From Candidatus Omnitrophota bacterium (GTDB taxonomy: Bacteria; Omnitrophota; Gorgyraeia; DTHP01), in NCBI GenBank assembly GCA_023819145.1, contig JAMWCW010000001.1:66400-130399 (forward strand): a stretch of DNA of 64,000 nt, read 5' to 3'. Shown here in pieces: positions 1,362 to 18,471 of this stretch. The first letter of the stretch is position 1, and every line of letters begins with the position of its first letter. The position numbers and the translations under genes are program-made. Below the pieces are notes generated by a model that had not been told where the DNA came from, ran no database searches, and was given only the letters and a program-made list of their open reading frames with translations.

Positions 1362-2210
1362 TTATTTTTTGCCACGCTCGGCAAGGATTTTATCCCAGAC
1401 CTCTCTTTGATATTGAGTGAAAAGTTCGTAAAGTCTTGACTCTAAAACTTTTCTTTCCCCTTCTTCGCTCCATAGTCTATAACTTTCCGAACAGAGCTTA
1501 AAAGCAATCATTAAAAGCTCATATTTATAACCTAATACTTCTCTTAAACGCTGCTCCTCTTTTTTTAGAGATTCTTCTAATTTTTCGTAGTCAATATTTA
1601 TCGCTTCATAATCAATTAAATAACCATCCTCGCCGGTTTTAGGATTATAATTTTCTCCTTCAATCCAGTGTTTACCTACGCGTCCATCATCTGCTTGTAC
1701 TGTATCCCGCGTATAGTCTATACCCCAGCTTTTGAGCTTAGGTAAAAACGGGGGGAGGGGCCTATATTTTTCTGCTTCTCCTGTCCAGGGATTCTGTACC
1801 CATCCGGAAGGAGGAGAGTCTTCCCTTCCTTCTGCATATTGATAGATATAGCAACCATCTTGGTAAAGGGTAAGAATATAAGGGACGTTTCTTGCTGGCA
1901 CTTCTCCCGTTAAGAACCAGTATTCATTCAAAAGAGCGCAAATAAGATGAATTTTATCTCCCCCTTTTGACTTGGCAATTAACAATAAAGGAGGACTAAA
2001 TTTTACTCCTTTAAGTTCTTCTATCTCAATAAAATCAACCTGCCCAACGCGCCAATTATTTGCTGCTTCGCGTATTTCTTCGGTGGTGATAAACGAGGGA
2101 TGAGTTTTTATTCTGCGTAGAGAAGAATAAGAGAGAGGTTCTATAAAGATAAAAAGAGCGTTAAATAATAGACTAAGCAAAGATAAGAGTAATAAAATTC
2201 TTGTTCTCAT
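1362..2210 (-). CDS. Hypothetical protein with N-terminal hydrophobic helix plus RR leader (MRTRILLLLSLL...SSLRRIKTHPS)
   Basis: Long ORF on minus strand. Likely start is the internal Met (MRTRILL) giving a TM/signal helix followed by SLRRIKTHP. No recognisable catalytic motif. Confidence 0.4.
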   Translation of the reverse strand: MRTRILLLLSLLSLLFNALFIFIEPLSYSSLRRIKTHPSFITTEEIREAANNWRVGQVDFIEIEELKGVKFSPPLLLIAKSKGGDKIHLICALLNEYWFLTGEVPARNVPYILTLYQDGCYIYQYAEGREDSPPSGWVQNPWTGEAEKYRPLPPFLPKLKSWGIDYTRDTVQADDGRVGKHWIEGENYNPKTGEDGYLIDYEAINIDYEKLEESLKKEEQRLREVLGYKYELLMIAFKLCSESYRLWSEEGERKVLESRLYELFTQYQREVWDKILAERGKK

Positions 2211-2263
2211 TTTTCTTCCCTGAGAAAATATAACACCTAATTTACCTAGCGTCAAGGGACACT

Positions 2264-2292
2264 TGACGATTTGCAAAAAGCGTGTTATATTT
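2264..2292 (+). promoter_or_regulatory. Sigma70-like promoter TTGACG-N17-TATATT; first of two identical 29-nt copies
   Basis: cTTGACGatttgcaaaaagcgtgtTATATt. Identical 29-mer recurs at 3915-3943. The palindrome CGTCAAGggacaCTTGACG overlaps the -35. Confidence 0.5.
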
Positions 2293-2399
2293 TAAACGAA
2301 ACTAAAATTCCTTTATCTAAGGATGCGGTAACTAATCTTTCCTTTAAGCTTAAATTTAGAACCCCTATAATTAAATACATAAAGAAGGTGTTTATACAA

Positions 2400-3785
2400 A
2401 TGTTATTGGTGAGGTTATTTTTGCTATTTGTTTTTGGTTTAGATGTATTATTTAATTTTTCTTCTTATTTATCTTGCCATAATTTTCTCTACGCATTACG
2501 CAGAAGTAAGCAAAGTAATATTTTTAGCTTAGGAATTGGTTCAAAGAAGACTATCGATGATTTGGGAGATATTTATGGCAAGGTTGTTTTAGTGAGGGTA
2601 GATTTTAATGTGCCTATTAAAGATGGACTTGTTTTAGACACCTATCGCTTAGAAAGAGCAAAAGAGACAATAGAAAATTTAACTAAGCGTGGTGCGAAGG
2701 TAGTTTTGATGTTTCATTTAGGCCGACCCAAAGGAAAGATTGTTCAAGAATATAGGATAGAACCGGTAATTGCTAAGTTTAGTGAAATGTTAGGCAAAGA
2801 GATTAAAATAGGTCCAGATGCCGTAGTAGGTGATGAATTAAGGGAGTTGGTTAGCAAGATGAATCCGGGGGAGGTAATTTCTTTACAGAATTTGCGTTTT
2901 CATTCCGGAGAAGAAAAACAAGATGAAGCCTTTGCGGAGGCAATTCTTAATTACACGAGGGCAGAGATTTACGTAAATGATGGGTCTGCCAATATGCACG
3001 GTAGCGACCAAGTGTCTGAAACTATCTTACCTCTCTTAATGCAGAGAAGAGGGCTTCCGACGGTTTTAGGAAAATTGGTGGTAGAAGAGTTTGGAATTCT
3101 GGAAAATTTTGTTAAGGGTGGTATAGATTTAGCCTTGTTTGGCGGTTCAAAATTTGAAAAGATTGAATCTATAAAGAATTTAGTGTCTAGTGGAAGAGTA
3201 AAAACTGTTTTTCTCTCGGGAGCAATGGCACACTTGTTCCTTAAAGCCAAAGGATTTGAATTAGGAAAGTCTAAAATTGACACAGAACTCGTGAGTGAAG
3301 CAGAAGAGATACTTGCTTTAGCCGAAAAGCGTGGCGTACGCATTGTGCTTCCTGTGGATGTGCGTTTAGATGATGGAAGTTTATTAGTTATTGCTGATAA
3401 AAAAGGAAATAAAATTGCTGATATACCGCCAGAAAGAGCCATTTGGGATATTGGAATTATTACTTTAAAAATGCTCAAAGACATGATGGAGATGATTCCT
3501 TCTTCAGGAAGAATAATTAGTAACGGCACCGCAGGATGGTTAGAAAAAGGTTTTCCTTTTGACTGGGGAACAAATGATATAAATAGAATGTTGATAAATC
3601 ATCCTGCAGAAAAATTAATTTTAGGAGGAGAAGGAGCTTTTGCTGCTTTGAATATGTTGGCTGAATATCAGGGAACACCTGAGCAGTTTAATATGACCAT
3701 TCTTACTGCAGGAGGAGCAGCACTTGCTTATCTAGCAGAAAGAGCGGATGAGCTTACGCCTTTTAATTATATTGATACGAAGTGA
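2400..3785 (+). CDS. pgk: Phosphoglycerate kinase-like protein with ~95-aa N-terminal extension (TM helix plus ALRRSKQSN)
   Basis: VLVRVDFNVP...GAKVVLMFHLGRPKG matches the PGK N-domain signature (RVDFNVP / HLGRP). C-terminal GGGA-like TAGGAALAYL. RBS AGAAGGTG 10 nt before the ATG at 2400. The six-frame ORF start at 2271 lies inside the promoter, so 2400 is preferred. Confidence 0.65.
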   Translation: MLLVRLFLLFVFGLDVLFNFSSYLSCHNFLYALRRSKQSNIFSLGIGSKKTIDDLGDIYGKVVLVRVDFNVPIKDGLVLDTYRLERAKETIENLTKRGAKVVLMFHLGRPKGKIVQEYRIEPVIAKFSEMLGKEIKIGPDAVVGDELRELVSKMNPGEVISLQNLRFHSGEEKQDEAFAEAILNYTRAEIYVNDGSANMHGSDQVSETILPLLMQRRGLPTVLGKLVVEEFGILENFVKGGIDLALFGGSKFEKIESIKNLVSSGRVKTVFLSGAMAHLFLKAKGFELGKSKIDTELVSEAEEILALAEKRGVRIVLPVDVRLDDGSLLVIADKKGNKIADIPPERAIWDIGIITLKMLKDMMEMIPSSGRIISNGTAGWLEKGFPFDWGTNDINRMLINHPAEKLILGGEGAFAALNMLAEYQGTPEQFNMTILTAGGAALAYLAERADELTPFNYIDTK

Positions 3786-3915
3786 TAATGAGTCGTAATC
3801 CGTAAACCGTAATCGGTAATTTGTAATAAAAAATAACGAACTCAACGAAATAACCAACTAAACGAAAATAACGAAATTAACGAACACAACGAACAAAATA
3901 TCATCAACGCAGCCC

Positions 3916-3944
3916 TTGACGATTTGCAAAAAGCGTGTTATATC
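3916..3944 (+). promoter_or_regulatory. Second copy of the identical TTGACG-N17-TATATc promoter
   Basis: cttgacgatttgcaaaaagcgtgttatat is identical to 2263-2291. Lies upstream of the small ORF at 4016 and of the GAPDH-fusion gene. Confidence 0.5.
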
Positions 3945-4015
3945 TTAATGTAGAAGAGAGGTACTTTATAAAACTTAAATTTCAATATCATAAATTAACT
4001 TTCTAGAATAAAAAG

Positions 4016-4201
4016 ATGAGAGATTTTAATTATTTCTTTCTATTGGAAAGTGAAAAAATAGTTTCTCATTCTAAAGGGTATCAAGCCCTGATTAAAGCAT
4101 TGGAGCATGGTTTTGAAGGATTAGACAAGGAAATAGCCAAGAGGTTAATAAATTCCTATTTATATTTAAATGAAAGGAGGGAATGTAATGAAAGGTTCTA
4201 A
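4016..4201 (+). CDS. Small hypothetical ORF (61 aa) between the promoter and the GAPDH-like gene
   Basis: ORF only; weak RBS; overlaps the start of the next gene. Could be a leader peptide or spurious. Confidence 0.2.
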   Translation: MRDFNYFFLLESEKIVSHSKGYQALIKALEHGFEGLDKEIAKRLINSYLYLNERRECNERF

Positions 4202-6611
4202 AATAAAATTTTTCTTAGTTTCTTTTTTGGTGCTTTCTTTTAGTTTTGGTTTTTCTTTTTCCGGTGATTCTTCTTTTTTATTGAGAAGACTCAGAAGTGT
4301 TCCTGTAGGTTATTTACCATCTTCAGGGATAGAAGTGGTAGATGCATTAGATGGTATGGTGAAGGTAGAGATGATTTTGCCTCAAACTTTTGAAGAGAAT
4401 CCGGCGTTAGTTCCGACATTATCGGCTTTTTTTCGTGCTTTAAGCTATAACCGCGATATAGAAATCTCAGCGATTGTATCTCCTGTTTCTGCGGAAGAGT
4501 TGGCTAGAGCCATTCAGTCAAATTATGCGTTAGGTCCGTGGAGAGGGGTTAATGTAAGTGCTGAAGGAAACACCTTAATTATAAGAGGAATGGATACAGA
4601 GGTAAGAATACCTGTTTCTACAAGTTCTACAAGATCCACCGGCGGAGCCGATGTTTCTATCTGTCTAGGAGATGTCTCCCGTGCTCCTTCGATTCTTTCC
4701 GGGAAAAGAGCGCTTTATTTTCCTGTAGGAAGCATAACAACGCAAGAAGGAATAACTGCTTTACCTGGTTCTATTGGAGAATGGGATAGTGCGGTGGTTA
4801 ATGTTTCGGAACTTACAGGTTTAGCAATAGCTTTACAAGCTCTGAGAGAAGAATTAGGAGGTTTTGGGATGGTGGGTAGAATAGATGTATTTTGTCCGGA
4901 AGGGGATATGACTATTGTGCCTTCGGCAAAAGAAGCCGATGTTTCTGATTACCTTTCTTCTTTAGGGATAACCTCCCCGGGAATGAGAGTAACTCTTCAT
5001 ACCACAAAAATATCCGGAGATATCAAAGGAGCAAGACTGGTAGGAATAGTAATTACTTTTCCCAGTAAAGTTACCAAAGAAGATTTAATAAAAATATTTG
5101 AAGCGCATCCTTTATTAGGAGTTGCTCCTGAAAAAGATTCTACTTCGGCAATGTTTACCAACCCCTATGAGACAAAACTTTTTTATCTCAATACCGGTAA
5201 GACTGTGGTAGACGAGCTAAAAGATGGTTCTACCATGATAACTCTGCGTGGTTGGGTAGGGGATTATTCTTACGCAGGAATGATGATTTCTGCCATCACT
5301 GAGGTGGGACAGCGTTTGTCGGAGTTAGGTATTCTTTCTACCCAGAAGGCAAGTGTAATCTATCCGGCAGTAGAGCATCCTAAAGTTCAAGTTCTTGCTC
5401 AACCGAAGAGAGTTATGGTCAATGGGGGAGGAGGGAGAATTGGAGTAAATATTTTGAGAAGTCTTATCGGAGATCCTAATTTTGATGTGGTGGCGGTTAA
5501 CGGAGTGCGTAGTGCCGAAGCCTTGCGTCAGGGATTACTTTATGACGAAATACTAGGTCCTACGCGGGCGGTAATAGAAACCGGCAAGCAGAAGTTATTG
5601 GACGGGAGAGAGATAGAGTTTGTGACTATAAATGGCCATAAAATATATGTGTTTAATGCCCGTGAAGATGAAGAAGTGCGTCAACTTCCGTTAGGTGATT
5701 TGGGGATTGAGTATGTTTTAGAAGCAAGTGGCAATTATACTCAAACAAAGGATTTTGAACCTTTCTTTCAAGCAGGAGCTAAATATGGCTTTATCAGCGC
5801 TCCCGCAAAAGATAAAACTACTCCAGAGATTGTTCCCGGTGTAAATCCTGAAACTTTTGTAGCGATGGCAAGAGAAGGACTATCTCAAGTGGTTTCTTTT
5901 GGTTCATGTACTACAAATAATGCTGCTCCTGCCATAAGAGCAGTGCTTGATCTTTTAGAAGCAAGAGGATTGCAAGTAGAAGAGCAATTAGAAAAAGTCA
6001 CTTTAGAGACAGTTCATGCAGTAACCCAGACCCAAGCACATCTTTTACCAATTCAAATCAGAGACCCAAATAAAGAGCCTGAGAGAGCAAGAGCAGGAGC
6101 ACTTAATATTGTAGTTTCTAGTACTGGTGCAGCTAAAGTTATTCCTAAAATCATTGAAGAAATTGACAAAATGGAGGGAATAGCTTTGCGCGTGGGCAAT
6201 CCTAATGGTTCGGAATCGCAGATTTCTTTCTATTTAGATGGTAAATCGCCCGTGACCAAGGAAGAAATAGTTGCTTATTTACAAGAAAGAGCGAGAACTG
6301 ACCTCTTTAATATTTTAAGAGTAAATACTGGAGAAAAATTAGATTCCCTAGCGATAAACGGTTCAGATATTACTTCCATTGTGGAAGCTTCAACGGTGAA
6401 AGTTACTCCTCGTTATAATGATAAAGGAGAATATGTTGGCGATATGATCGTGCTTAATACTTGGTATGATAACGAATGGAGTTATACTCAACAGTACTTA
6501 AGGGGAATTATTATGTTTACCCTATTACTGGAGAACCCTGGTTTAACCCCCGAAGAACTCTTGGTGCGTAGTGACAGATTGGGTGTACATGCCTATGCTC
6601 CTATCCCATAG
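4188..6611 (+). CDS. gap: Glyceraldehyde-3-phosphate dehydrogenase fused to a ~370-aa N-terminal domain of unknown function, with TM plus LLRRLRSVP leader
   Basis: C-terminal half carries MVNGGGGRIGVNILRSL (NAD-binding GxGxxG), the catalytic SCTTNNAAP (SCTTNCLAP signature with Cys) and TVHAVTQTQ (His176 region). RBS AAAGGAGGG 7 nt before the ATG at 4188. Confidence 0.65.
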   Translation: MKGSKIKFFLVSFLVLSFSFGFSFSGDSSFLLRRLRSVPVGYLPSSGIEVVDALDGMVKVEMILPQTFEENPALVPTLSAFFRALSYNRDIEISAIVSPVSAEELARAIQSNYALGPWRGVNVSAEGNTLIIRGMDTEVRIPVSTSSTRSTGGADVSICLGDVSRAPSILSGKRALYFPVGSITTQEGITALPGSIGEWDSAVVNVSELTGLAIALQALREELGGFGMVGRIDVFCPEGDMTIVPSAKEADVSDYLSSLGITSPGMRVTLHTTKISGDIKGARLVGIVITFPSKVTKEDLIKIFEAHPLLGVAPEKDSTSAMFTNPYETKLFYLNTGKTVVDELKDGSTMITLRGWVGDYSYAGMMISAITEVGQRLSELGILSTQKASVIYPAVEHPKVQVLAQPKRVMVNGGGGRIGVNILRSLIGDPNFDVVAVNGVRSAEALRQGLLYDEILGPTRAVIETGKQKLLDGREIEFVTINGHKIYVFNAREDEEVRQLPLGDLGIEYVLEASGNYTQTKDFEPFFQAGAKYGFISAPAKDKTTPEIVPGVNPETFVAMAREGLSQVVSFGSCTTNNAAPAIRAVLDLLEARGLQVEEQLEKVTLETVHAVTQTQAHLLPIQIRDPNKEPERARAGALNIVVSSTGAAKVIPKIIEEIDKMEGIALRVGNPNGSESQISFYLDGKSPVTKEEIVAYLQERARTDLFNILRVNTGEKLDSLAINGSDITSIVEASTVKVTPRYNDKGEYVGDMIVLNTWYDNEWSYTQQYLRGIIMFTLLLENPGLTPEELLVRSDRLGVHAYAPIP

Positions 6612-6644
6612 AAAATAAGATTTATTCTCGCAAAAGGAGGAATT

Positions 6645-8798
6645 ATGCGGATAAGCAATTTAGTAAGAGTTATTTTTATTTTCTTTTCTGTTCAATTTTC
6701 TCTCTTTTCTGGTGAACTCCGGAATGGAGTAATCTTAATTTCTCGTCGGGCTAAGAATCAAGAATTTTTAATAGTGTCTCCCTTTCAAAAATTACTCTCT
6801 CTTTTAGGAAACGGATTACAAACTGGTCTTAACTTTGATGAAGGGATAGAACTTTTTCGCCAGATAGAGAGATTGCGCTTGTCTGTGGAGGAAACAGAAG
6901 ATTTTTATTCTTTTATAGCGAATAATCTTGTTGATTTTTTGGTAGTTTCAGAAAGGTCAGGAATTAGAATTGACCTTCTTGATATTCGCGACCTTTTCTC
7001 GGCAGCACAGAACTATGCTTTGGGGATAAGAAGAGATGAGTTGGGATTAAATAGGGGAGGAAGGGCTCTTTTAAATAAGATGTTAAGTGTTAAAGATATA
7101 AAAATCATTGGTGAACAGCTTTTAGAAGCACTTGACTCCTCTTTTAACAATGGCAGGATTGATAAAGCTAATTACCTGAAATATAGAGAGCGTCTTGAAA
7201 TTATTACTCTGATGGCTGGACTCTGGGCAACTTCACCAGTGAGTTCTAAGAGTATGCTTAGAGCTTTAGAAGGAGGAAATACCGCCATTATGGCCGCAAA
7301 TACCCAGATGTCGGTAAGTATTCCCGGACTTATGCTTGCTTCTTTAGAATTTGGAGCTCCCCTTATGTTTGAATCGGCAATGAGTGAAGTCAACCTGCAA
7401 GACCCAAATGACCCTGCGAAAATAGCTATTGGTTATATCGGTAGAAATCCCCAGGAATTTGCGGAAGTAGTAAGATACTATGCCTTTCTTTTAGGTTACG
7501 ACCTGCCTTATGCCATTCATGCTGACCACACCACAGTAAGTAAAGATACAGCGGAGGCAATTGACTATGCTAAAAGACTTAATCAAGCACAATTATCTGC
7601 AGGATATACCTCTTTTGCTATTGATCCTTCATCTCTTCCCGCAGTGAGAGAAGATACCCAGTTAAAAACGCTCAATGCCATGGAGGTGGAAGAGTTCTTG
7701 AGGCTTGGTTTTGATGAAAGTTTAGCAAAAACTTTAGCCGCGCGAGAATTTAAAAAATTAAAAGAACTCTCTTCTATTGAAGGAATAGACGAGAGAAAGA
7801 TCAATATTCTGATGGACTATATTGAGTCACAGATTCTAGTTGCAGTTTTGAATAAAATGGGGTATGAAGATTTGATGAGCATTCCACGTATGCCTGGAAC
7901 TATTGCCCGTGCCATTGTAGAGAACGGTCCGTTTACTTCCTTGGAAGAGCTAAAAGAAATTGATGGGCTGGGTGATGATGATATTTTCTATATTGAGGGA
8001 ATAGACAATGCGGTTCTTTTGTTTGATTATTTAAAGGCTTACTTAGATTTAAAGCGGATTATTGAGATAAATATAGAATTAGCAAAATTTATTCCTGAAG
8101 AGTTTGGTTTAGAGGTGGAAGTTGGTCATATTGGAAGAGTTGATCCACTGACGGGAGAGGCGGTGATGACTACTCCTTTAGAAGCGGTAGTTTTGATTGA
8201 AGCATTACAAAGATTTGGGATAAAACCACAGCTTTTGGCGGTAAATAATGGAACAAAACACGGAATTGTCTTCATTGGGGGTAAAGAGGTTCCTACGACT
8301 GTAGATGTAAAAAGAACCGATGAAATAGCGAGCGCTATAAGACCTTTAGGAGTTTCCCTTGCTCAGCACGGAACTACTGGTACGCCTTTTGAGGTTATAA
8401 AAGATCAACTTGCGGGAAATATCCTTAAAGCCAATGTAGGAACCGAGTGGCGGAGAACTGTTTTAAGAAGCATGCCTTTGGATTTATTCTATAGAATGGT
8501 AGAGTGGACAGTGGAAGAAGAAAAAAGGAAAGCTCCAGAGAAATTTTCTGGACTTCTTCCGGTAAGAAGTTATACACGTGAACAACTGCTAAGTTCAGAG
8601 TGTCCTTACTATGCTTTAATTATTGATCCTATAAAACGGGCAATAGGAGTTTTTAGAGCTGAAATTGATAATATTTCTGGTGAGGATTTGGATTTAATTG
8701 TAGAAACAACCCGCGAAGTAGCAAGAGAGTATTTTACTGCTTTTAATGCTCTAGAGAAAGTTTGGAAGATTGTAAAGTATTTGGGTTGGGGATGGTGA
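6645..8798 (+). CDS. Class II fructose/tagatose-bisphosphate aldolase-like protein with inserted tandem helix-hairpin-helix motifs and N-terminal TM plus ISRRAKNQ leader
   Basis: AIHADHTT (DH metal-binding motif), EVEVGHIGRVD (EaElG-like) and SLAQHGTTGTP...ILKANVGTEWRR (LHGgSG...KiNidT-like) fit the class II aldolase TIM barrel. SIEGIDERKINIL and IPRMPGTIARAIVENGPFTSLEELKEIDGLG are HhH-like. Confidence 0.5.
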   Translation: MRISNLVRVIFIFFSVQFSLFSGELRNGVILISRRAKNQEFLIVSPFQKLLSLLGNGLQTGLNFDEGIELFRQIERLRLSVEETEDFYSFIANNLVDFLVVSERSGIRIDLLDIRDLFSAAQNYALGIRRDELGLNRGGRALLNKMLSVKDIKIIGEQLLEALDSSFNNGRIDKANYLKYRERLEIITLMAGLWATSPVSSKSMLRALEGGNTAIMAANTQMSVSIPGLMLASLEFGAPLMFESAMSEVNLQDPNDPAKIAIGYIGRNPQEFAEVVRYYAFLLGYDLPYAIHADHTTVSKDTAEAIDYAKRLNQAQLSAGYTSFAIDPSSLPAVREDTQLKTLNAMEVEEFLRLGFDESLAKTLAAREFKKLKELSSIEGIDERKINILMDYIESQILVAVLNKMGYEDLMSIPRMPGTIARAIVENGPFTSLEELKEIDGLGDDDIFYIEGIDNAVLLFDYLKAYLDLKRIIEINIELAKFIPEEFGLEVEVGHIGRVDPLTGEAVMTTPLEAVVLIEALQRFGIKPQLLAVNNGTKHGIVFIGGKEVPTTVDVKRTDEIASAIRPLGVSLAQHGTTGTPFEVIKDQLAGNILKANVGTEWRRTVLRSMPLDLFYRMVEWTVEEEKRKAPEKFSGLLPVRSYTREQLLSSECPYYALIIDPIKRAIGVFRAEIDNISGEDLDLIVETTREVAREYFTAFNALEKVWKIVKYLGWGW

Positions 8799-10461: not shown

Positions 10462-11253
10462 GTGCGATATTTAATAATAAGAAAAATAGTAATTATTTTA
10501 TTTTTTTTGGCTCTTTCTCAGACAATAGTATTTTCTCCGGTGTATGCTCGCAGAGTGAAGTGGTTTGGGGGTGAGTTATCACTTCTTCAAGAAAATAATT
10601 TTTTTGTAGGGCTGGAAGATAGTTTGAAAGAGTTTGTTATTAAATTCGAGGATGCCAGAGTAATAAAATCTATCTCTCAGCCAGAGCCATTAGAAGGGGA
10701 TGCCCCTTTTGATTCCGGAGAAAAGATAGTTACCTATAAAATTGAGGTTTTGACAGATAAAGGGGTTAGCAGTTTAGTAGTGAAATTGGTAAGTAGCAGA
10801 GAAGCAAAAAATTTCTTAACTGCTTCTTTAAGGGGTGTTTCTCCAGGTCCAGCGATTTTTGTAGAACAGGGGTGGGAGAACAGAAATGGCGTTAGCGAAG
10901 GTTATTTAATCTATCGGTTCTTTGAAGGAGTGAAGTTAAGCGAAATTTGTAATCAGGAACAGGCAATTGATATCCTAAAGAATAATCTTTGGATTATTGA
11001 AGAATTAGGTATTAAACTTGCGAATTTAAAGAAAGCAGGGGTAAAATATAGAGATTTTTTATATTATAATACGCTTATTGATTTAGAAAAGAGAGCTCTT
11101 GTGATTGTTGATTACGGTGATAGGCATTGCGCTGATCCCTTTATTCAGGTAAGAGATTGGTGGTTGCCTTTGATGTTCAATACTGAACCCGAGATATTAG
11201 AGAAAGTTATTAGTTTATTTGTAGAAGTTTATCAGAGAGAATTAAATAATTAA
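10462..11253 (+). CDS. Hypothetical protein with TM plus YARRVKW leader; possible small kinase-like fold
   Basis: GTG start with weak RBS. IVDYGDRHCADPF and VVKLVSS are faintly reminiscent of a kinase-like fold but not diagnostic. Confidence 0.35.
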   Translation: MRYLIIRKIVIILFFLALSQTIVFSPVYARRVKWFGGELSLLQENNFFVGLEDSLKEFVIKFEDARVIKSISQPEPLEGDAPFDSGEKIVTYKIEVLTDKGVSSLVVKLVSSREAKNFLTASLRGVSPGPAIFVEQGWENRNGVSEGYLIYRFFEGVKLSEICNQEQAIDILKNNLWIIEELGIKLANLKKAGVKYRDFLYYNTLIDLEKRALVIVDYGDRHCADPFIQVRDWWLPLMFNTEPEILEKVISLFVEVYQRELNN

Positions 11254-11325: not shown

Positions 11326-13551
11326 ATGGGTATGAGGAAAATATTCATATTTTGTTTTATTCTCATAAAATTTGCCATCTTTTCATTTTCTTTTAATTTT
11401 TCCTCTTTAGAAATTATTGCGCATCGCAGAACTAAAATTTCTCCTTTAGTAGCAAATCATGAGTCTGTAAGGAAAGTTTTAGTAGATATTTTCTACAGAG
11501 CAGCAGGATTTCAAGGGGCTTTGCGCAGCGGAACAGCACAAGAACGGCGAGATATTTTAAACCAACCTGAGGTAAAGCGCGCTGTTTCTTTGCTCCAATA
11601 TGGTTTGAGTTTAGGAAGTACAACTTTAAGAAATCAAGTGGCTTATCTTGCTGAACGTTTAGGGATAAGCGCGAATCCCGCAGTAAATATTGGAATCTAT
11701 CAGGGAGAAGCCGAAATTTTTGATATTCTGGGAAATATCTTTATGCCTGAGGGAGATGGTTTAGTCTTTTATCAAAAAGGAACTGATAATCCCGAAACTC
11801 TTTTTAAGCCTTTTTTGGCTCGCTATGGAGCCAAAATATTTGAATTTGACCCTTACTTCGTAGAGCGCAATTCTACTCCCTCCTATTCTACAGAATTAAG
11901 CGGTTTTGAAGCGCTGATTTCTTTAGCTATTCAAGAGGGACAAAATCCGCGTTTTATCTATCTTAGCGGAAAAGGTTTAACCGAAGCGCAAGCAAGAAGA
12001 ATTTATGCTTTGGCAGAAACTTACAATCTTATAATTATTGAGGATATTACCAACGCAAACCCTACAGATTATCTACTTTCTGCAAACGATTCTCAAGGGA
12101 GAGTAATTTCCATCGGAAATTTTGACAAGTATTTAGGGGCTGCAAATCCTTTAAGTTATGCCATTGCGGGAGAAGAGATTATGCGTCTTATGGAAATTGC
12201 TATTGGCGGGATAAGTCTTCATCCCAATGCTTTTATTCAGCCGATAGTCTCGGAAATTTTAGCCCAAAACGGTATACCTTTCTCGGTAAATGTTTCCTAT
12301 AAACCCATCACTCTTTCTGAGAGTGTAAAAGCAATTCTTGCTTCAACAGGTGCAGACCAGCGCTTAAAACCCTCCATCATTAGAGAAATTCTTAAAGGGG
12401 CAGTTTCGGATATGGTGCGTATGGGAGGAGGGGTTCCTGCCGAGGAGTTCTTCCCTTATGTGGAAATTGCCCAGATTATAGAAAATATGAGCCCTGAGGA
12501 ATGGGAAAAGGTAATGGCTGGGGACCCGGCGATTAATTTAGAGTTGCGCAGTGTTTTTTGCCGGTGGCTTGAAGAAAGAGGAATAAAAGCTGACCCCCGT
12601 CAGGTTTTGGTAACCAATGGGAGCCAGCAGGGTTTGGATTTATTGGGAAGATGGGTGGGAAAAGAAGGAGTTGTTTTTGCCGAATCTCCTACCTATGTAG
12701 GAATGATTACGGGAGTTGCTCCTTACGGAGGCCTTCCTTATGGTAGAAATATTCGGCATTGGGATTTACGCACACTCACTGGATTAGAGAATTTAGAGAA
12801 AGAAATTGAAGAGAACTATCGAGGTAAAAAAATTGTTTTATATGTTACACCAAACTTTGGTAATCCTCCTTCAGGGAATATGTGGACGATTAGCGAAAGA
12901 AGGAATCTTCTGGCTTTTGCCCAGAGGATGCGCTTAAAGGGATACGATTTGCATATTGTAGAAGATGATCCTTATGGAGAACTAAATTATACTGGTCAAA
13001 GAATTGTAGATATCAAAGAGTTGGATACAAACGGAACAGTAATTTATTTCAACTCCAATTCCAAAGTCTTTTCTCCGGGAATGCGTGTGGGGTACATTGT
13101 GGCTGATGAGAAAATAATTCATGAATTTGCTTCTCTTATGGATGAAGTAGGTTCTTTTGTTCCTACACTCCCCCAACTTATTATTACTAAGTTTATCGAG
13201 ACAGGAGCGATGGATAGACATATTGAATTTTTGATTGGTGAATATTCAAAACGTGCACGGGCAATGGAAGAAGCTTTAGAGGAATTTATGCCTGAAGGTG
13301 TAACCTGGACAAAACCTGAGGGAGGGTTATTTATTACTTTAACTGTTCCCTGGGATATAGATTTTATGGCCATGCTTGAGGAGGCCAAAAATTACGCGAT
13401 TCCCTTTAACTTTGTTCCGGGTATCGCCTTTAGTGTGGATGGCTCAAGTGCTCATAAAATTCGTCTTTGCTTTTCCACAGAGTCTGAAGAAAGAATAACC
13501 TTAGGTATTAAGGCTTTTGCGGAGTTGATAAAAAAACACCTTGGCCAATAG
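11326..13551 (+). CDS. PLP-dependent class I/II aminotransferase fused to ~400-aa N-terminal domain, TM plus AHRRTKISP leader
   Basis: C-terminal half has VLVTNGSQQGLDLL, DDPYGEL and NSNSKVFSPGMRVGYIV (the SxSKxxxxxGxRxG Lys-PLP motif of fold-type I aminotransferases). RBS GGGGGAGG. Confidence 0.6.
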   Translation: MGMRKIFIFCFILIKFAIFSFSFNFSSLEIIAHRRTKISPLVANHESVRKVLVDIFYRAAGFQGALRSGTAQERRDILNQPEVKRAVSLLQYGLSLGSTTLRNQVAYLAERLGISANPAVNIGIYQGEAEIFDILGNIFMPEGDGLVFYQKGTDNPETLFKPFLARYGAKIFEFDPYFVERNSTPSYSTELSGFEALISLAIQEGQNPRFIYLSGKGLTEAQARRIYALAETYNLIIIEDITNANPTDYLLSANDSQGRVISIGNFDKYLGAANPLSYAIAGEEIMRLMEIAIGGISLHPNAFIQPIVSEILAQNGIPFSVNVSYKPITLSESVKAILASTGADQRLKPSIIREILKGAVSDMVRMGGGVPAEEFFPYVEIAQIIENMSPEEWEKVMAGDPAINLELRSVFCRWLEERGIKADPRQVLVTNGSQQGLDLLGRWVGKEGVVFAESPTYVGMITGVAPYGGLPYGRNIRHWDLRTLTGLENLEKEIEENYRGKKIVLYVTPNFGNPPSGNMWTISERRNLLAFAQRMRLKGYDLHIVEDDPYGELNYTGQRIVDIKELDTNGTVIYFNSNSKVFSPGMRVGYIVADEKIIHEFASLMDEVGSFVPTLPQLIITKFIETGAMDRHIEFLIGEYSKRARAMEEALEEFMPEGVTWTKPEGGLFITLTVPWDIDFMAMLEEAKNYAIPFNFVPGIAFSVDGSSAHKIRLCFSTESEERITLGIKAFAELIKKHLGQ

Positions 13552-13608
13552 ATTTTTTTGTAATATTTATATCTCCCTTTGGTTATAGATAATAGGGGGG
13601 CGAGAAAG

Positions 13609-14769
13609 ATGAAGAAATACTTAAGAATTAGAGGGATATTTATTTTAGTAGTATTTGTAGTATTTTTATTTACGCTTTTGATTCCTGTAAAACATTCCTT
13701 GGCTTATCCCAGGAGTTATCCTTATTTAGTTTCTAATTCATTACCAGCTTTTTCCGCGCGAGGGTTTAATGAAGCGCTCTTAGCGCGAGTTTTGCGCGAG
13801 ATTATCATTATCTATAAATTCTTGGCTCAAATCGAAAGGGTTCTTAATGAAAGAGGAGAAAATGATTTTCCATCTTTAGGTAGGGTCATCGGAGACAGAC
13901 CTCAGGAGAGAGAAAATTCCCAAAATACTCCCCCCAAAAGAAGTAATTTAAGGGAAGAACCTGCGGGTAACCGTCATCTAGACCCAGAAAATCCTTCGGC
14001 AAAACTACCAGAAGGGTCATCTTCGTCACCTGCTGGTTCTCTAGGAAAGATAAAGATTGCGATTATTGATATTGACTCTAAGCACGCCGCAGAAGTAAAG
14101 GCGGTAATGGAAGAGACAATTCGGCGTAAGAATCCCGGGGCAAAAGTAGAAATTCGTACCATTATTCTTCCTGGCAAATGGCAAAGGGATGGTTCTAAAG
14201 CGGTGGCTACCAGTGATATTTTAGACGCTTTTGCAGAAGCCAAAGCTTGGGGCGCAAAGGTAATCAATATGAGTATTGGTGCACAAGGAGGTGTAGACGG
14301 TATAGTGCTTAGTGCCTTACGCGACCTTTCTGAAAGTGGCATTCTGGTAGTAGCGGCATCAGGTAATGAAGGTAGTTATGATGCTTGGGGGCAAGCTGGC
14401 CGATATGTCTTATCAGTGGGGGTAAGAGGTGCACCTTATTCCAATACCGCTGATTTATATGTCGATTGGGGAGAGCTTCCACCTGGATTAGAAGGCACAT
14501 CTTTTGCTGCTCCGATTATTGCTGCGGAAGCGGCTTTAGCCTGGTTAGAAAACCCTTCCCTTAACTTGGCAAGTTTGCCTTCTCAATTAGGTTCACGGGA
14601 CACAGTTTATGCCCGGAGTAATCCTCCGCAAAGAAGTTCGCAGGGGTTTCACACTTCGGCAATAGAGTTTGTAAGGCCACCTGTTGTTTTTTATACGCCG
14701 GTGGAAGAAATGCCTTTTTACGAACAGAGTTTTTATTCGCCTGTTGGCTGTTTTCCGTCTTTTTGGTAA
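13609..14769 (+). CDS. Subtilisin-like serine peptidase (S8 family) with N-terminal TM helix
   Basis: VVAASGNEGS (Asn oxyanion region), GTSFAAPIIAAEAALAW (GTSxAAP Ser motif) and AKVINMSIG. RBS AGGGGGG before the ATG at 13609; the six-frame ORF extends to 13579. Confidence 0.6.
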   Translation: MKKYLRIRGIFILVVFVVFLFTLLIPVKHSLAYPRSYPYLVSNSLPAFSARGFNEALLARVLREIIIIYKFLAQIERVLNERGENDFPSLGRVIGDRPQERENSQNTPPKRSNLREEPAGNRHLDPENPSAKLPEGSSSSPAGSLGKIKIAIIDIDSKHAAEVKAVMEETIRRKNPGAKVEIRTIILPGKWQRDGSKAVATSDILDAFAEAKAWGAKVINMSIGAQGGVDGIVLSALRDLSESGILVVAASGNEGSYDAWGQAGRYVLSVGVRGAPYSNTADLYVDWGELPPGLEGTSFAAPIIAAEAALAWLENPSLNLASLPSQLGSRDTVYARSNPPQRSSQGFHTSAIEFVRPPVVFYTPVEEMPFYEQSFYSPVGCFPSFW

Positions 14770-14876
14770 TTTTTGTTTGTTTTCTTCTAAATAAAGGGGA
14801 CACTTACTACCGACTCTTCATTGGTTGTAAGAAAGTAAAAGATATTAAACTTGAATTCCGAGGAGGTATTATATAA

Positions 14877-16064
14877 ATGAAAAATAGTAGAGGAAAGATT
14901 TATGTTATGTTTTTGGGTTTGTTATTTTTCTTTCTTAACTCATTATTATATTTAGACTTATCTGCGGGATGCTCTTTCCGGCGAATCAAAACTCAACCTG
15001 CCAAAGAATCTGCGCTGGTGCTTTTTTTCCACGAATTAGGTAGAGAAGATATTTTTTTAGTGGGAGGAAAAGGGGCAAATTTGGGAGAACTTTCGCATAT
15101 TGCCGGGATAAGCGTTCCCGAGGGGTTTGTAGTTACCACCACCGCTTTTCAAAAATTTTTAGATGCCAACCCTGGATTACAAGATAAAATTATCAGGATT
15201 ATAAATAGTATAGATTGGGATACCCCTTCCAGTATAAACTCTGCTGCGGAAAAGATAAAAGAAGCGGTTTTGCGTGCGAACATGCCGCGAGAGATTATTG
15301 AGATGATTAAAGCAGGTTATGGCCATTTAGAAGAGATCTCCGGAATAAAGGATGTGCCCTGTGCTGTAAGAAGTTCGGGAGTTGCTGAGGATTCTCCTAA
15401 CTTTTCTTGGGCAGGTCAATTCCGCACTGAATTAAATCAGAGGGGAATATATCAGGTTTTAGAGGCGGTTAAATTAATCTGGGCAGAGTTGTATAATCCT
15501 GATGCCCTTACCTATGGACATCAGAATGGTATCGACCCGCGCAAATTTTCTATGGGAGTGGTAATTCAGCGGATGATAAATTCAGAGAAATCAGGAGTGG
15601 CTTTTGGACTGGAGTCCGATACAGGTTTTCGTGCCAATCCCGGAGGAATGGAAGGAGTTTTTTATATTGAAGGGGTTTATGGTTTAGGTGAAGGGATGGT
15701 GCAAAATATTCAAGAACCTGATGGATTTTTGGTAGTAAAGATGCCTAATGGTGAATTTAAAATTATTGAACGCATTTTCGGTTCCAAAAGAGAACAGATA
15801 GTTTATCGGTCTGGAATGAGTGGGACAGAGAAAACTTCGGTTCCCGAAGAATGGCGTCAGAGATGGGTTTTTTCAGAAGCAGAGGTGTTAGAGATTGCTC
15901 GTGCAGTTTTTGCCTTAAATAGCCACTATAATCATCCCCAGGATGTAGAATTTGCCTGGGAAGGAGGAAAACTATACATATTACAATCACGCAATGAGAC
16001 AGTTCATGCAGATAAACCAGTAGATTTAATTGAATGGAGAAAGTTTAGAATTAACCTTAAATGA
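14877..16064 (+). CDS. PEP-utilizing dikinase (PpsA/PPDK family) N-terminal nucleotide-binding domain protein, TM plus SFRRIKTQP leader
   Basis: FLVGGKGANLGELSHIAGISVPEGFVVTTTAFQKF is the PPDK_N / PEP synthase ATP-grasp signature. RBS AGGAGG 10 nt upstream. Confidence 0.65.
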   Translation: MKNSRGKIYVMFLGLLFFFLNSLLYLDLSAGCSFRRIKTQPAKESALVLFFHELGREDIFLVGGKGANLGELSHIAGISVPEGFVVTTTAFQKFLDANPGLQDKIIRIINSIDWDTPSSINSAAEKIKEAVLRANMPREIIEMIKAGYGHLEEISGIKDVPCAVRSSGVAEDSPNFSWAGQFRTELNQRGIYQVLEAVKLIWAELYNPDALTYGHQNGIDPRKFSMGVVIQRMINSEKSGVAFGLESDTGFRANPGGMEGVFYIEGVYGLGEGMVQNIQEPDGFLVVKMPNGEFKIIERIFGSKREQIVYRSGMSGTEKTSVPEEWRQRWVFSEAEVLEIARAVFALNSHYNHPQDVEFAWEGGKLYILQSRNETVHADKPVDLIEWRKFRINLK

Positions 16065-16083
16065 AAAAAGGGGGAGATAAATA

Positions 16084-18471
16084 ATGAAGTGGTTACATGT
16101 TAAAATTTTTTGGAGTATTGCCTTTTTAATTATTGCCAGCCTACTTTATGTTGATAATCTTTTTATGTTTTCTTCTTTAGATTTTATTACAAGAAGAGTA
16201 TTAACTCCTTCTTATACAGATTCTCCTTCGGTTGAGGTTCCCTCCGGTTCTCCTAAAATAATTGCCCGTGGAGAAGGGGTAGGTGCTAAAGGAGCGGGGG
16301 TAGGACGAGTGGTTATCATTGATGAAAATAGTTCCATCCCTATTCGTGAGCAGGCAATGCGTGTGCGCGAAGGAGATGTACTTGTTGCTTATCGCACCGA
16401 TCCTTCTTTGGTGGATGCCATGCGCCGAGCAGGTTTGGTGATTACTGAAATTGGAGGGAAAAATTCTCATGCTGCGATTGTCGCTAGAGAATTTAATTTA
16501 AATGCGGTTATTGGTGTGCCCAATGCTACGCGTATTTTTGCTCAAGGGCAGGTAGTTACTGTTGATGCTGAGCATGGAGTCATTTATGCTGGAGCTTTGC
16601 CGCTTGAAGAAGATAGTGTTTCCTATCGCGTGAGTGAACTTCCGTCTACGAGCCCTGTAAAGATAGGGATACTTTCCTTTGATACTGCTCGGGTGAGAGC
16701 GATGTTTCCTTTGGGTTTGTATTCTGATTTTTACGGTATAGGGCTGATGCGTGCAGAGTTTGCTTTACAAAATATTGGCATCCATCCGTTAGCAATATTG
16801 GATTTTGATAGAGGTACGCTTAGAGATGCAAGGCTACAAACAGAAATTACGCAAAAAATCAAAGGCTATGCGAGTGCGCGAGACTATTACATCTCAAAAC
16901 TTTCTTCTGCAATATTTTCCAATTCGCTTATTCTACATGAGGGGCAAAAGGTTATTTACCGCACCACTGATTTTAAAACCAACGAATATGAAGATATGTT
17001 AGGAGGGGATGTTTACGAGCATAAAGAGCCCAACCCCATGATGGGCAATCGCGGTTTACAGCGAATGATTAGTCCTGAATACCGGGAAGCATTTGATATG
17101 GAACTCGAAGCATTTTTACTTGCCTGGAAAGATAATCCGGGAAAGATTTCTATCATGGTTCCTATGGTACGCACTCCCCAAGACCTTCTGACTTTTCGTC
17201 AAATTCTTGAGGGAAAAATAAGGAGTATGGGGCTCTCGGGTATGCCTGAGGTAGTAATGATGTATGAATTGCCCGCGAATGTTTTTCAGATAGAGGAATT
17301 TATTCACGCCGGTATAAATGGTATTTCCATTGGTTCAAATGACCTGACACAATTTATTCTGGCAGTAGACAGGGACAGTGGTTTATTTAGAGAAGGAGGT
17401 AGAGAAGAATATGATGCCGTAAATAGAGCAGTATTGCGTGCTATCGGCATCGGTATAACTTCTTCTAAAGCCCGCGGTGTAAAAACAGGTATTTGTGGGC
17501 AAGCGCCATCAGACCATCCAGATGTTTATCCTGCAATTCTTACTGCTTTAGGAATAGATTCTATAAGTGTTACTCCCGATGTGTTTCATAAAGTGGTAGA
17601 AGCAGTAGCCCAAGCACAACAAAATCCTTCTTTTGGGATGAGATACCTTTCGGGTTTAGATTTATTTTTAGGCTACGATACCCAGACTAATCCCAAACGA
17701 GAATTAAAGAAGATAATTAGTTCTGATGATATACTTCGGAGTATTGGCATTCATCCTTTAGCCTTACTTGCCTTTGACCGGGGAAGTAGTTTATTGAGTG
17801 ATACGGCGATAAGTAGGCAGATTGTTTCTTTTGCCGGAGAAGAAACTGCAGAACGGGCTTACTTTGACCGTGTATATAGGGCGGTAAAGAATGCTTTACT
17901 TATGGATGGAGAGGTAGTTTATAGAACAGGAAGTTTGCTCAGTACCGATTATAAAACGCTTGTGGGAGGAGATATTTTTGAAAAAGAAGAAGCAAATCCC
18001 TTATTGGGTGCGTTTGGAATGTACCGCCTGCTCAGATATGGTTCAGAAGATGGCGCTTTGAGTATGCGTGATATTTTTAACATAGAGATGGATGCAGTTT
18101 TAAAAGCTGTGCGGGATACCGGTAAAGTTATTCATTTAGAGTTAGATATGGTGCGCACTTTTGGAGAATTACAGGAGGCAGTTTCTGTGATTAATGAGGC
18201 AATACGCCGTACAGGGATTTCTCCAGATAAGGTGAAAATTGGTCTAAATGTTTCTACTCCGGCAAATGTTCTGCTTATTTCTGATTTTATTAACCAAGGG
18301 AGATTAAGTTTTGTGAGTATCGACGAAAAAAGGTTAGCCTGTTATCTTTTGGGGGTGGATTCCTTGAGTATGGTTAGCCCCGAGGCTATTGAACGAGCCC
18401 TATATATACCTCGTCAACTGGTTTATACAGCATTAGCTCAAAAGGGAATCCCTTTAGTTAACTCCCCCTAA
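16084..18471 (+). CDS. PEP-utilizing dikinase central phospho-His domain plus TIM-barrel domain followed by a degenerate second TIM-barrel copy; TM plus ITRRVLTPS leader
   Basis: TEIGGKNSHAAIVAREFNLNAVIGV (PEP-utilizers mobile His domain); MVPMVRTPQDL and GSNDLTQFILAVDRDS (PEP-utilizers_C). A second copy, IGIHPLALLAFDRG...LDMVRTFGEL...SIDEKRLACYLLGVD, has the NDLTQ motif degenerated. RBS GGGGGAG. Confidence 0.65.
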   Translation: MKWLHVKIFWSIAFLIIASLLYVDNLFMFSSLDFITRRVLTPSYTDSPSVEVPSGSPKIIARGEGVGAKGAGVGRVVIIDENSSIPIREQAMRVREGDVLVAYRTDPSLVDAMRRAGLVITEIGGKNSHAAIVAREFNLNAVIGVPNATRIFAQGQVVTVDAEHGVIYAGALPLEEDSVSYRVSELPSTSPVKIGILSFDTARVRAMFPLGLYSDFYGIGLMRAEFALQNIGIHPLAILDFDRGTLRDARLQTEITQKIKGYASARDYYISKLSSAIFSNSLILHEGQKVIYRTTDFKTNEYEDMLGGDVYEHKEPNPMMGNRGLQRMISPEYREAFDMELEAFLLAWKDNPGKISIMVPMVRTPQDLLTFRQILEGKIRSMGLSGMPEVVMMYELPANVFQIEEFIHAGINGISIGSNDLTQFILAVDRDSGLFREGGREEYDAVNRAVLRAIGIGITSSKARGVKTGICGQAPSDHPDVYPAILTALGIDSISVTPDVFHKVVEAVAQAQQNPSFGMRYLSGLDLFLGYDTQTNPKRELKKIISSDDILRSIGIHPLALLAFDRGSSLLSDTAISRQIVSFAGEETAERAYFDRVYRAVKNALLMDGEVVYRTGSLLSTDYKTLVGGDIFEKEEANPLLGAFGMYRLLRYGSEDGALSMRDIFNIEMDAVLKAVRDTGKVIHLELDMVRTFGELQEAVSVINEAIRRTGISPDKVKIGLNVSTPANVLLISDFINQGRLSFVSIDEKRLACYLLGVDSLSMVSPEAIERALYIPRQLVYTALAQKGIPLVNSP

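Follow-up and report, generated by a model that had tools for sequence, protein, structure and literature searches.

The leader-bearing gene cluster

The DNA under study (the window) is a stretch of 64,000 nucleotides from an uncultured Candidatus Omnitrophota bacterium (assembly GCA_023819145.1, contig JAMWCW010000001.1, positions 66,400 to 130,399 of the forward strand). Eleven proteins encoded in the window were found to begin with a common add-on of about 45 residues, here called the leader, which consists of a basic start, a hydrophobic helix of 16-20 residues, a polar or aromatic spacer of 8-14 residues and an arginine-arginine (RR) box with the pattern R-R-[VIA]-[KRH]-[TS]. Ten of these are products of the 11 large genes at positions 287-18471, where 12 genes are present and only one, open reading frame 1 (ORF1), lies on the minus strand; the other is an asparaginase-like protein encoded 42 kb away from this cluster (Table 1). 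An earlier note on this DNA, made from the sequence alone, had quoted leader motifs gene by gene, and all of them were present at the genes concerned. The S8 subtilase encoded within the cluster had been credited there with a weaker version of the motif; its N-terminus is hydrophobic, but the RR box is absent and the protein is not a member of the set.

Table 1. Features of the leader-bearing cluster, giant open reading frames with a homologous PFK domain, and related loci (aa, amino acids; identities are to the window protein)
Feature	Sequence	Positions	Strand	Details
Class I S-adenosylmethionine (SAM) methyltransferase with leader	window	287..1210	+	Methyltransf_31/25/12; leader 290-442, ...DRLSA-RR-VKSDS
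ORF1, Omnitrophota-only protein with leader	window	1362..2210	-	leader 2085-2210, ...SYSSL-RR-IKTHP
Divergent promoter-like pair between ORF1 and PGK	window	2227..2291	both	TTGACG-17-TATATT; consensus match only
PGK paralogue with leader	window	2400..3785	+	PGK 258 bits, full length; leader 2400-2528, ...FLYAL-RR-SKQSN
61-aa ORF	window	4016-4201	+	
Tandem GAPDH with leader	window	4170..6611	+	leader 4188-4316, ...SSFLL-RR-LRSVP
Class II fructose-bisphosphate aldolase-like enzyme with leader	window	6645..8798	+	Shine-Dalgarno (SD) site AAAGGAGG; leader 6645-6773, ...VILIS-RR-AKNQE
Long-type PFK with leader	window	8869..10407	+	GGDD, TIDGD and FGR motifs present; leader 8869-8991, ...YFSF-RR-IHRN
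Protein-kinase-like fold protein with leader	window	10462..11253	+	weak Bud32 match; leader 10462-10581, ...SPVYA-RR-VKW
Pyridoxal phosphate (PLP) aminotransferase with leader	window	11326..13551	+	public call P0061; leader 11332-11457, ...EIIAH-RR-TKISP
Small S8 subtilase, hydrophobic N-terminus, no RR box	window	13609..14769	+	catalytic D, H, N, S conserved
Phosphoenolpyruvate (PEP) synthase, N-terminal (ATP-grasp) half, with leader	window	14877..16064	+	PPDK_N 307 bits; SD GAGGAGG; P0059; leader 14877-15011, ...AGCSF-RR-IKTQP
PEP synthase, C-terminal half, with own leader	window	16084..18471	+	SD AAGGGGGAG; leader 16084-16221, ...LDFIT-RR-VLTPS
Asparaginase-like protein with shorter leader	window	60162..61886	+	Asparaginase N and C domains; leader 60165-60269, ...DICFA-RR-IPSYF; leader model 20.6 bits
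Giant ORF	L024	14-21457		at least 7148 aa; PGI, HD/RelA-SpoT, starch synthase, HAD, PFK, glutamate dehydrogenase, LuxR helix-turn-helix (HTH)
Giant ORF	L034	44-13513		at least 4490 aa
Giant ORF	L029	184-5307		at least 1708 aa
Related locus	L007/L008			PFK identity 75%
Related locus	L003/L009			PFK identity 72%
Related locus	L088			no PFK; aminotransferase identity 73%
Related locus	L168			PFK identity 57%
Related locus	L010			PFK identity 53%
Related locus	L004/L011			PFK identity 46%
Related locus	L001/L002 and L012 (Ca. Saelkia tenebricola)			PFK identity 36%
Related locus	L031, L033			PFK identity 33-35%
Related locus	L170			PFK identity 33%

Enrichment and anatomy of the leader

For the enrichment test we used the 27 window proteins having an N-terminal hydrophobic stretch. 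An RR box located after this stretch and within the first 45 residues was present in 11 of them against 1.6 expected (binomial P = 1.5e-7), while the remaining 16, which include conventional signal peptides, three lipoproteins, RND pumps and one substrate of twin-arginine translocation (Tat), had no RR in that region. The recurrence of the motif that the earlier note had pointed out is therefore beyond chance.

Leader dimensions were measured on 34 leaders from the window and related contigs. The RR dipeptide was located at a median of 33 residues from Met1 (range 26-42). The n-region consists of Met followed by 1-5 K/R residues (mean 2.4) with about 0.1 acidic residues, and the h-region is uniformly hydrophobic, rich in Phe and Ser and of median length 16.5, which falls within the range of 13-19 measured for the ordinary signal peptides of the window. 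Mean Kyte-Doolittle hydropathy of the helix before RR was 2.2-3.1 over 13 residues. The helix usually breaks at N, D, P or G into a polar or aromatic spacer of median 11 residues, rich in S, G, N and aromatics, with L or F dominant directly before RR and no conserved Ala-x-Ala. Net charge was higher on the N-terminal flank (+2.3) than on the C-terminal flank (+1.4), acidic residues following the helix, and the 15-residue C-terminal flank held a mean of 2.35 K/R residues.

The consensus of the box was [SIA]-[LFSA]-R-R-[VIA]-[KRH]-[TS]-[SP], often with Pro 1-3 residues further on. When 31 leaders from the window and its relatives were aligned, the first Arg was invariant (31/31) and the second nearly so (30/31), followed by V/I/A at +2 (23/31), K/R/H at +3 (24/31) and T/S at +4 (15/31). 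In a 50-leader alignment, from which the most divergent leader was left out, RR was invariant. Folded domains start 6-12 residues past RR, as judged from canonical PGK and PEP synthase N-termini and from a fusion junction described below; for the window PGK the distance to the canonical fold is about 12 residues. In the AF2 model of ORF1 (pLDDT 74) a helix is predicted at residues 2-21 and a disordered stretch, which contains RR, at residues 22-35.

Roughly half of the leaders match a pattern of basophilic kinases, R-x-x-[ST]. Use of RR-x-x-[ST] as a phosphosite by two kinase-like proteins of the cluster was considered and set aside because the S/T at +4 is present in only about half of the leaders. 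A candidate RR box at the mature N-terminus of a 1378-aa secreted protein encoded downstream (KVRTQVIRNSP) was also rejected: the orthologue has AVRTQ, which identifies the stretch as a repeat of that protein and not a leader.

Translation starts

A leader could be an illusion of misplaced start codons, and the earlier note had named this as a way in which its reading might fail. GGAGG-type ribosome-binding sites were present 5-10 nt 5' of the leader ATGs at 6645, 8869, 11326, 14877 and 16084, and for the N-terminal half of PEP synthase, the methyltransferase (P0060), the aminotransferase, PGK and ORF1 the Met chosen here is also the start in independent public gene calls. These upstream ATGs are the true starts. 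The listed starts of four genes required correction, ORF1 beginning at Met 2210 on the minus strand and not at 2276, and PGK at Met 2400 and not at 2271; both are backed by public gene calls (P0063, and P0062 for PGK). In the other two, GAPDH and the aminotransferase, translation may begin from the second Met, at 4188 and 11332 respectively. ORF1 is transcribed divergently from the rest of the cluster, and the promoter-like sites between it and PGK, which are near-identical, back to back and of the extended -10 (TG) kind, fit the corrected starts and so support them.

Identity of the cluster enzymes

The Pfam matches of the cluster enzymes were solid, yet their scores fell far below the NCBIfam equivalog cut-offs, which marks these proteins as divergent paralogues. 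Catalytic signatures were intact on reading the sequences: SCTTN and TVHA in GAPDH, RVDFNVP and HLGRP in PGK, TGGGD, GGDD, KTIDGD and FGR in PFK, HADH and QHGTTG in the aldolase, GGKNSHAAIVAR and ICGQ in PEP synthase, and SNSK in the aminotransferase. A preprint reports strict matches to GAPDH, PGK and enolase in 176/176 complete Omnitrophota genomes and matches to PFK at a relaxed threshold only, a count which is not lineage-specific (10.64898/2026.06.07.730766).

The two genes described earlier as a dikinase each carry a leader as claimed, but their product is a split PEP synthase (pyruvate, water dikinase). The C-terminal gene encodes the His swivel domain, the PEP-binding barrel and an extra degenerate barrel (two PEP-utilizers_C stretches). 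Similarly, the supposed GAPDH fusion is a GAPDH with a leader, but its extra half is a degenerate GAPDH copy (approximately aa 47-410, without the catalytic Cys; E 4e-5 to GAPDH in a PDB profile search) placed before an active copy which keeps both signatures. The tandem arrangement was kept in L001, L007, L088, L012, L033 and L168. Just 5' of the tandem-GAPDH gene a small leaderless ORF (53-61 aa, ...SL.EA...LEERF..LD...) was seen in at least three genomes: in the window at 4016-4201 (+), where it overlaps the GAPDH gene, in L003 at 3178-3339 and in L007 at 2719-2898. The aminotransferase has an N-terminal extension of about 350 aa ahead of a MocR-type catalytic domain. Residues 394-455 of the aldolase-like protein form an inserted helix-hairpin-helix domain (HHH_3, with weak ComEA/PsbU similarity) of a type typical of extracytoplasmic DNA-binding or lumenal proteins.

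Homologues of ORF1 numbered only five, all inside or close to Omnitrophota clusters. It gave no PDB sequence match, and its AF2 model matched only protein-kinase-like folds (RIO, aminoglycoside-phosphotransferase and choline-kinase), all weakly. The protein encoded at 10462 retains VxK, D..N and DYG motifs, so that the cluster seems to contain two protein-kinase-like proteins. Triose-phosphate isomerase (TPI), phosphoglycerate mutase and enolase were not found in the cluster. Unassigned domains were considered as candidates for these missing activities. The N-terminal half of the GAPDH protein was ruled out on its identification as degenerate GAPDH, and ORF1 on the lack of a PDB match and its weak, exclusively kinase-like fold matches.

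Conservation and specificity across Omnitrophota

At least 10 other Omnitrophota contigs encode leader-bearing proteins, about 60 in number and drawn from more than 12 families; the identity of leader-bearing PFKs to the window PFK ranged from 75% down to 33%. The box is degenerate in L170, the lineage furthest from the window, where it reads C-RKIRK and F-RTIRG. In related loci the leader was also present on GlpX-type FBPase, Methyltransf_28-like proteins and several unknowns, and was absent from the flanking housekeeping genes (hyp, hydrogenase, acyl-CoA dehydrogenase). A hidden Markov model (HMM) of 34 leader sequences, which scored the window methyltransferase at 27.7 bits, produced full-length matches beyond its training set only in Omnitrophota cluster loci and zero matches in approximately 55 control loci from other phyla and 79 unrelated metagenome loci (about 1.3 Mb together). 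The latter were obtained from a metagenome scan seeded with the aminotransferase, which yielded one true orthologous locus (L088); the other 79, with ordinary MocR-like proteins, served as negative controls.

Orthologues keep the leader and distant homologues lack the whole N-terminal part of 40-70 residues, which answers the concern that homologues might simply begin downstream. The nearest relatives of the PFK without a leader come from Gracilibacteria, Peribacteria, Peregrinibacteria and bins labelled Altiarchaeota; their alignment to it starts no earlier than residue 63-73, and in the one locus examined they have ordinary housekeeping neighbours. A profile of the 11 window leaders (46 positions) searched against 1.84 billion representative proteins returned 4 matches at E <= 1e-3, all from this genome, and the 50-leader alignment searched against a 5.8-billion-protein index returned nothing at E <= 10; as the profile is too short for databases of this size, both searches say nothing on other cargo families. 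The leader is a lineage-specific signal common to unrelated enzyme families, as the earlier note had proposed, and is distinct from the ordinary Sec and lipoprotein signals of the window. No description of the RR leader or of signal-bearing glycolytic enzymes in Omnitrophota was found in the literature searched, and the leader is apparently undescribed.

In three of the related loci, Fe-S/FAD oxidoreductase genes and a group 4 [NiFe] hydrogenase operon directly follow the cluster (L001 15578-21764, L012 9807-15922, L004 11444-12271), and in L001 hyp maturation genes also precede it.

Fusion and fission of leader-bearing proteins

In L010 the aldolase and PFK are fused into one protein of 1253 aa with a single leader. 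At the junction the aldolase C-terminus (...GWGW) is joined to PFK residue 39, and PFK residues 1-38, including RR, are gone. Conversely, the window PEP synthase is encoded in two parts, divided between the ATP-grasp and His-swivel domains, and each half has a leader. Fusion thus removed exactly the PFK leader and the split provided the C-terminal gene with one, which indicates that the leader is a module present once per polypeptide and belongs to none of the enzyme folds. Other fusions inside the clusters were the tandem GAPDH and a 1430-aa FBPase protein.

A homologue of the long-type PFK was also found as a domain inside giant ORFs of other Omnitrophota (L024, L034, L029). These ORFs span the entire fetched loci, and their domains also include DHBP synthase, HPr and cytidylate kinase. 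Giant proteins of this phylum have been described as 'Archaeovorins' or 'multi-enzyme metabolic' giants, in which TPI, PGI, FBPase, PGM, aldolase and PPDK domains are predicted to be extracellular (10.1101/2023.11.21.568195; 10.64898/2026.06.07.730766). Like the window cluster they belong to the Omnitrophota and overlap with it in repertoire (FBA, FBPase, PPDK/PEP synthase, methyltransferases and S8 peptidases), homology of the cluster enzymes to giant-ORF domains having been demonstrated for PFK only; they are also membrane-associated, with domains predicted to be extracytoplasmic by the same two preprints. Unlike the cluster, which consists of separate genes for proteins of 263-813 aa with their own leaders, they are single ORFs of more than 10,000 aa with interspersed transmembrane (TM) helices. 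We considered whether the giant ORFs might be arrays of leaders and enzymes and rejected this, since L024, L034 and L029 contained few TM segments and no helix-plus-RR units detectable with the leader HMM. The leader is therefore specific to the unfused arrangement, and the window cluster looks like an unfused counterpart of the giants, in which an overlapping repertoire is co-localised by a leader instead of by covalent fusion.

The S8 subtilase and the downstream neighbourhood

A sorting protease co-occurring with the leader had been suggested as something to look for, and the S8 subtilase of the cluster was considered as a candidate. The gene was present in the cluster only in the window and in one other lineage (L003/L009), and its product is closest to ordinary subtilisins and PatA, not to kexin or furin, and lacks a P-domain. 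On these grounds it was rejected as a dedicated RR-site protease, a role which is kept as a weak possibility only. A 139-aa lipoprotein encoded at 30419-30838 consists of a subtilase (fervidolysin-type) N-terminal prodomain alone, and might act in trans, as prodomain or inhibitor, on a subtilase like that at 13609-14769.

Directly 3' of the cluster are genes for two very large secreted proteins with no confident Pfam match, one of 1378 aa (19002-23138) with long internal repeats, which is conserved beside the cluster in L003, and one of 2015 aa (23396-29443) containing a 14-glycine run. An IS200-type Y1 transposase gene (29623-30276) separates them from efflux-pump genes. GC skew was positive throughout the window (1-64000) and all but one of about 38 genes were on the plus strand, which places the window on one replichore and shows a strong strand bias.

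Comparison with known signals

No named sorting signal among the known systems compared was found to match the leader, in agreement with the earlier note. Signal peptides of the Sec/signal peptidase I pathway and type II signal-anchors resemble the leader: the n-region is basic, the length of the hydrophobic helix falls in the same range, and the element is N-terminal and occurs once per polypeptide. The leaders differ from signal peptidase I substrates in lacking a conserved Ala-x-Ala, in having cargo of the cytosolic enzyme type, and in placing RR and a third basic residue within about 15 residues after the helix, a zone normally depleted of positive charge. A lipoprotein (signal peptidase II) signal was ruled out: Cys occurs within 4 residues before RR in a minority of leaders, and the lipobox L-[AS]-[GA]-C fits only the leader at 14877 (LSAG-C).

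Encapsulation peptides of bacterial microcompartments (BMC) are also short common extensions which co-localise several enzymes of a pathway encoded at one locus. They are, however, amphipathic helices of about 18 residues which accompany shell genes, and this explanation was ruled out because the leader helix is uniformly hydrophobic and no BMC-domain protein was encoded in the window block or among the scanned proteins of related loci. Peroxisomal and glycosomal targeting signals likewise co-localise enzymes, and glycosomes relocate glycolysis itself, but these signals are unrelated to the leader in sequence and position. In kexin/furin processing a dibasic site is cut by an S8B subtilase which has a P-domain beside its catalytic domain and acidic S1/S2 pockets, and which co-occurs with its substrates. 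The leaders offer such a site; the cluster S8 protein has no P-domain. In its layout the leader belongs with the bipartite N-terminal targeting or anchoring signals, and its cargo is unusually surprising.

Export or membrane anchoring as the favoured mechanism

The leader is a real and conserved element, modular and specific to its set of proteins. We infer the orientation, the cleavage, the recognising factor and the physiological role of the leader from its features as follows. With a probability of roughly 40%, the leader is an SRP/Sec-type (SRP, signal recognition particle) signal or signal-anchor in the N-in/C-out orientation, with the RR box acting as a recognition site for a second step. 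The basic N-terminus and hydrophobic helix would first direct insertion with the N-terminus in the cytoplasm, so that the spacer, the RR box and the enzyme would come to lie beyond the cytoplasmic membrane. A second factor would then read the R-R-[VIA]-[KRH]-[TS] box in the disordered linker, leading either to proteolytic release or to retention or sorting. The net effect would be that co-transcribed paralogues, catalytically intact by their motifs, share one membrane-associated, extracytoplasmic location; the relocated set would comprise PFK, aldolase, tandem GAPDH, PGK, split PEP synthase, aminotransferase, methyltransferases and kinase-like proteins, and in relatives FBPase.

Several lines of evidence point this way. 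The n- and h-regions of the leader were indistinguishable from those of the organism's own signal peptides, and, as no Ala-x-Ala is conserved, a second step would most obviously act on the RR box in the disordered linker. That the pair is strictly Arg-Arg and never Lys-Lys implies specific recognition, not a generic charge effect. Cysteine content of the mature parts of the leader proteins was 0.39 per 100 aa, close to the 0.34 of conventional exported proteins of the window and in contrast to the 1.33 of its cytoplasmic proteins. For PFK alone, leader-bearing proteins had 0.37 Cys per 100 aa versus 1.06 in relatives without a leader (P = 4e-4, with no correction for phylogeny). Furthermore, two preprints predict that the glycolytic-type domains of the Omnitrophota giants are extracytoplasmic (10.1101/2023.11.21.568195; 10.64898/2026.06.07.730766).

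A number of observations weigh against export. Most cluster enzymes need ATP, NAD, SAM or PLP, which would not be expected in a periplasm, and Sec export in E. coli is hindered by three basic residues within about 15 of the helix. The L024 giant with the homologous PFK also has RelA/SpoT-like and LuxR HTH domains, which make sense only in the cytoplasm. The membrane-bound group 4 [NiFe] hydrogenase operon abutting the cluster in three distant loci would fit a metabolon on the membrane's cytoplasmic side. Without TPI, phosphoglycerate mutase and enolase the cluster is not a self-contained pathway. Finally, no recogniser of the box was identified, the S8 protease being neither consistently syntenic nor kexin-like.

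Alternative explanations

It is possible, if somewhat doubtful, that the leader is a tether on the cytoplasmic face, the helix anchoring each enzyme while the catalytic domain stays in the cytoplasm as part of a membrane-bound glycolytic metabolon. Such an arrangement needs N-out/C-in insertion or a re-entrant hairpin, with the basic RR box as a positive-inside or halt-transfer determinant as in the anchors of microsomal P450 enzymes. The needs of nearly all members for ATP, NAD, SAM or PLP fit this location, as do the adjoining hydrogenase operons of L001, L012 and L004, the clearly cytoplasmic domains of giant ORFs with a homologous PFK, and a gene set that cannot work as a pathway on its own, since TPI, phosphoglycerate mutase and enolase are missing from it. 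A membrane would in addition hold both PEP synthase halves close together. Basic residues follow the helix in every leader, and the two basic clusters lie about 28 residues apart, often with a P/G/N/D break between them, a distance near that in a PglC-type re-entrant helix. The P450 anchor and the PglC helix resemble the leader in having an N-terminal hydrophobic helix with basic residues and often Pro, and a soluble domain on the cytoplasmic face. However, P450 enzymes lack a strongly basic extreme N-terminus, whereas the n-region of the leader is always basic, and with 1-5 K/R and almost no acidic residues it disfavours translocation of the N-terminus. The second arm of PglC is fully hydrophobic, whereas the leader spacer, which contains N, S, Q, D, E and Y, is too polar for a returning hairpin arm. 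RR also lies about 11 residues off the helix and does not flank it, a positive-inside function would accept Lys where Arg-Arg is nearly invariant, and the Cys-depleted mature parts resemble exported proteins.

Delivery into a host or prey cell appears improbable. After Sec export the RR box would act in the manner of PEXEL or RxLR, and the enzymes would be transferred into an attached cell or a junction space filled with host cytoplasm. ATP, NAD and SAM would be available there, which solves the cofactor problem, and this would reconcile the arguments for export with those for the cytoplasm, though direct support is lacking. The PEXEL motif of Plasmodium and the RxLR motif of oomycetes share the formal architecture of the leader: many unrelated cargos carry a secretory signal and, a short and fixed distance after it, an Arg-containing motif of 4-5 residues. 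In Plasmodium a dedicated protease cuts at the motif. They belong to a eukaryotic ER (endoplasmic reticulum) pathway and read RxLxE/Q/D or RxLR, unlike the bacterial R-R-[VIA]-[KRH]-[TS], and the resemblance is architectural only. Microsporidia provide a precedent in secreting hexokinase into host cells, and the large secreted repeat proteins encoded directly downstream of the cluster (19002-29443) would suit such a lifestyle. Omnitrophota are inferred to be ultra-small and host-dependent or predatory (PMC10066038; 10.64898/2026.06.07.730766), but this evidence comes from the phylum and none of it from the present lineage. No secretion or injection machinery was linked to the cluster in any locus examined, and the benefit of sending PGK, GAPDH or PEP synthase into a host is speculative.

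We consider it very unlikely that the leaders are relics of fission or fusion, namely linker or TM segments derived from, or precursors of, a giant polyprotein with RR as a former or current cleavage site. The idea gains from the homologous PFK domain that other Omnitrophota encode within ORFs whose lengths run from at least 1,700 to at least 7,100 aa, from the FBA-PFK, tandem GAPDH and FBPase fusions within the cluster itself, and from the reported giants of 80,000-147,000 residues, which have about one TM helix per 1,000 aa and may be cut by S8 or C39 peptidase domains (10.1101/2023.11.21.568195; 10.64898/2026.06.07.730766). The three giant ORFs scanned, however, had few TM segments and no leader-HMM match before their enzyme domains, and the strong conservation of the leader right at the N-terminal end, where it starts with Met-Lys/Arg, points to an N-terminal function that is still in use.

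That the proteins are unusual Tat substrates, exported folded and cofactor-loaded by TatABC on a twin-arginine signal of reversed order, is scarcely credible. The invariant twin arginine, with Lys not tolerated, and a cargo of cofactor-binding oligomeric enzymes, the usual reason for Tat export, recall that pathway, and at least one protein of the organism, encoded at 58900, bears a normal Tat signal. In that protein, as in Tat signals generally (S/T-R-R-x-F-L-K in the n-region before the core), the motif (TRRNFIK) stands ahead of the helix. In the leaders RR follows the helix at 26-42 residues from Met1 (34/34) and is succeeded by polar or charged residues and, within 6-12 residues, by the folded domain, with no second hydrophobic stretch; its flanks (Φ-basic-T/S) differ, and the helix is strongly hydrophobic and hence Sec-like. 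The two signals are distinct, as the earlier note had stated. An artefact of wrong start codons or of chance composition, suggested by three listed ORF starts (2271, 2276, 13579) upstream of the real ones, is already effectively refuted by the SD sites at the leader ATGs, the identical public gene calls, conservation across lineages down to 33% identity, the binomial test and the empty controls.

Implications

The export or signal-anchor reading can be carried further, to a new bacterial sorting signal which moves a dedicated glycolytic and energy-metabolism module to a metabolically active compartment outside the cytoplasm, or else into a host or prey cell attached to the bacterium. In this extended form we regard it as unlikely. 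The leader is short and portable, with one invariant dipeptide. Were it a true sorting signal, it would constitute a new class beside the known bacterial N-terminal signals (Sec, lipoprotein, Tat and prepilin), and the proteins bearing it would form a coherent group of central-metabolic enzymes which by textbook accounts are cytoplasmic. A cytoplasmic-face tether, if that is what the leader is, would mean a membrane-tethered glycolytic metabolon with a dedicated conserved anchor, still unusual in bacteria. If the enzymes are relocated beyond the membrane or into a host, the leader would be a bacterial counterpart of glycosome targeting or PEXEL export, and would explain the presence of 'cytosolic' enzymes in the predicted extracellular regions of the Omnitrophota giants. 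A true sorting signal would also bear on how ultra-small, host-dependent Omnitrophota arrange their metabolism and on the purpose of their giant multi-enzyme proteins.

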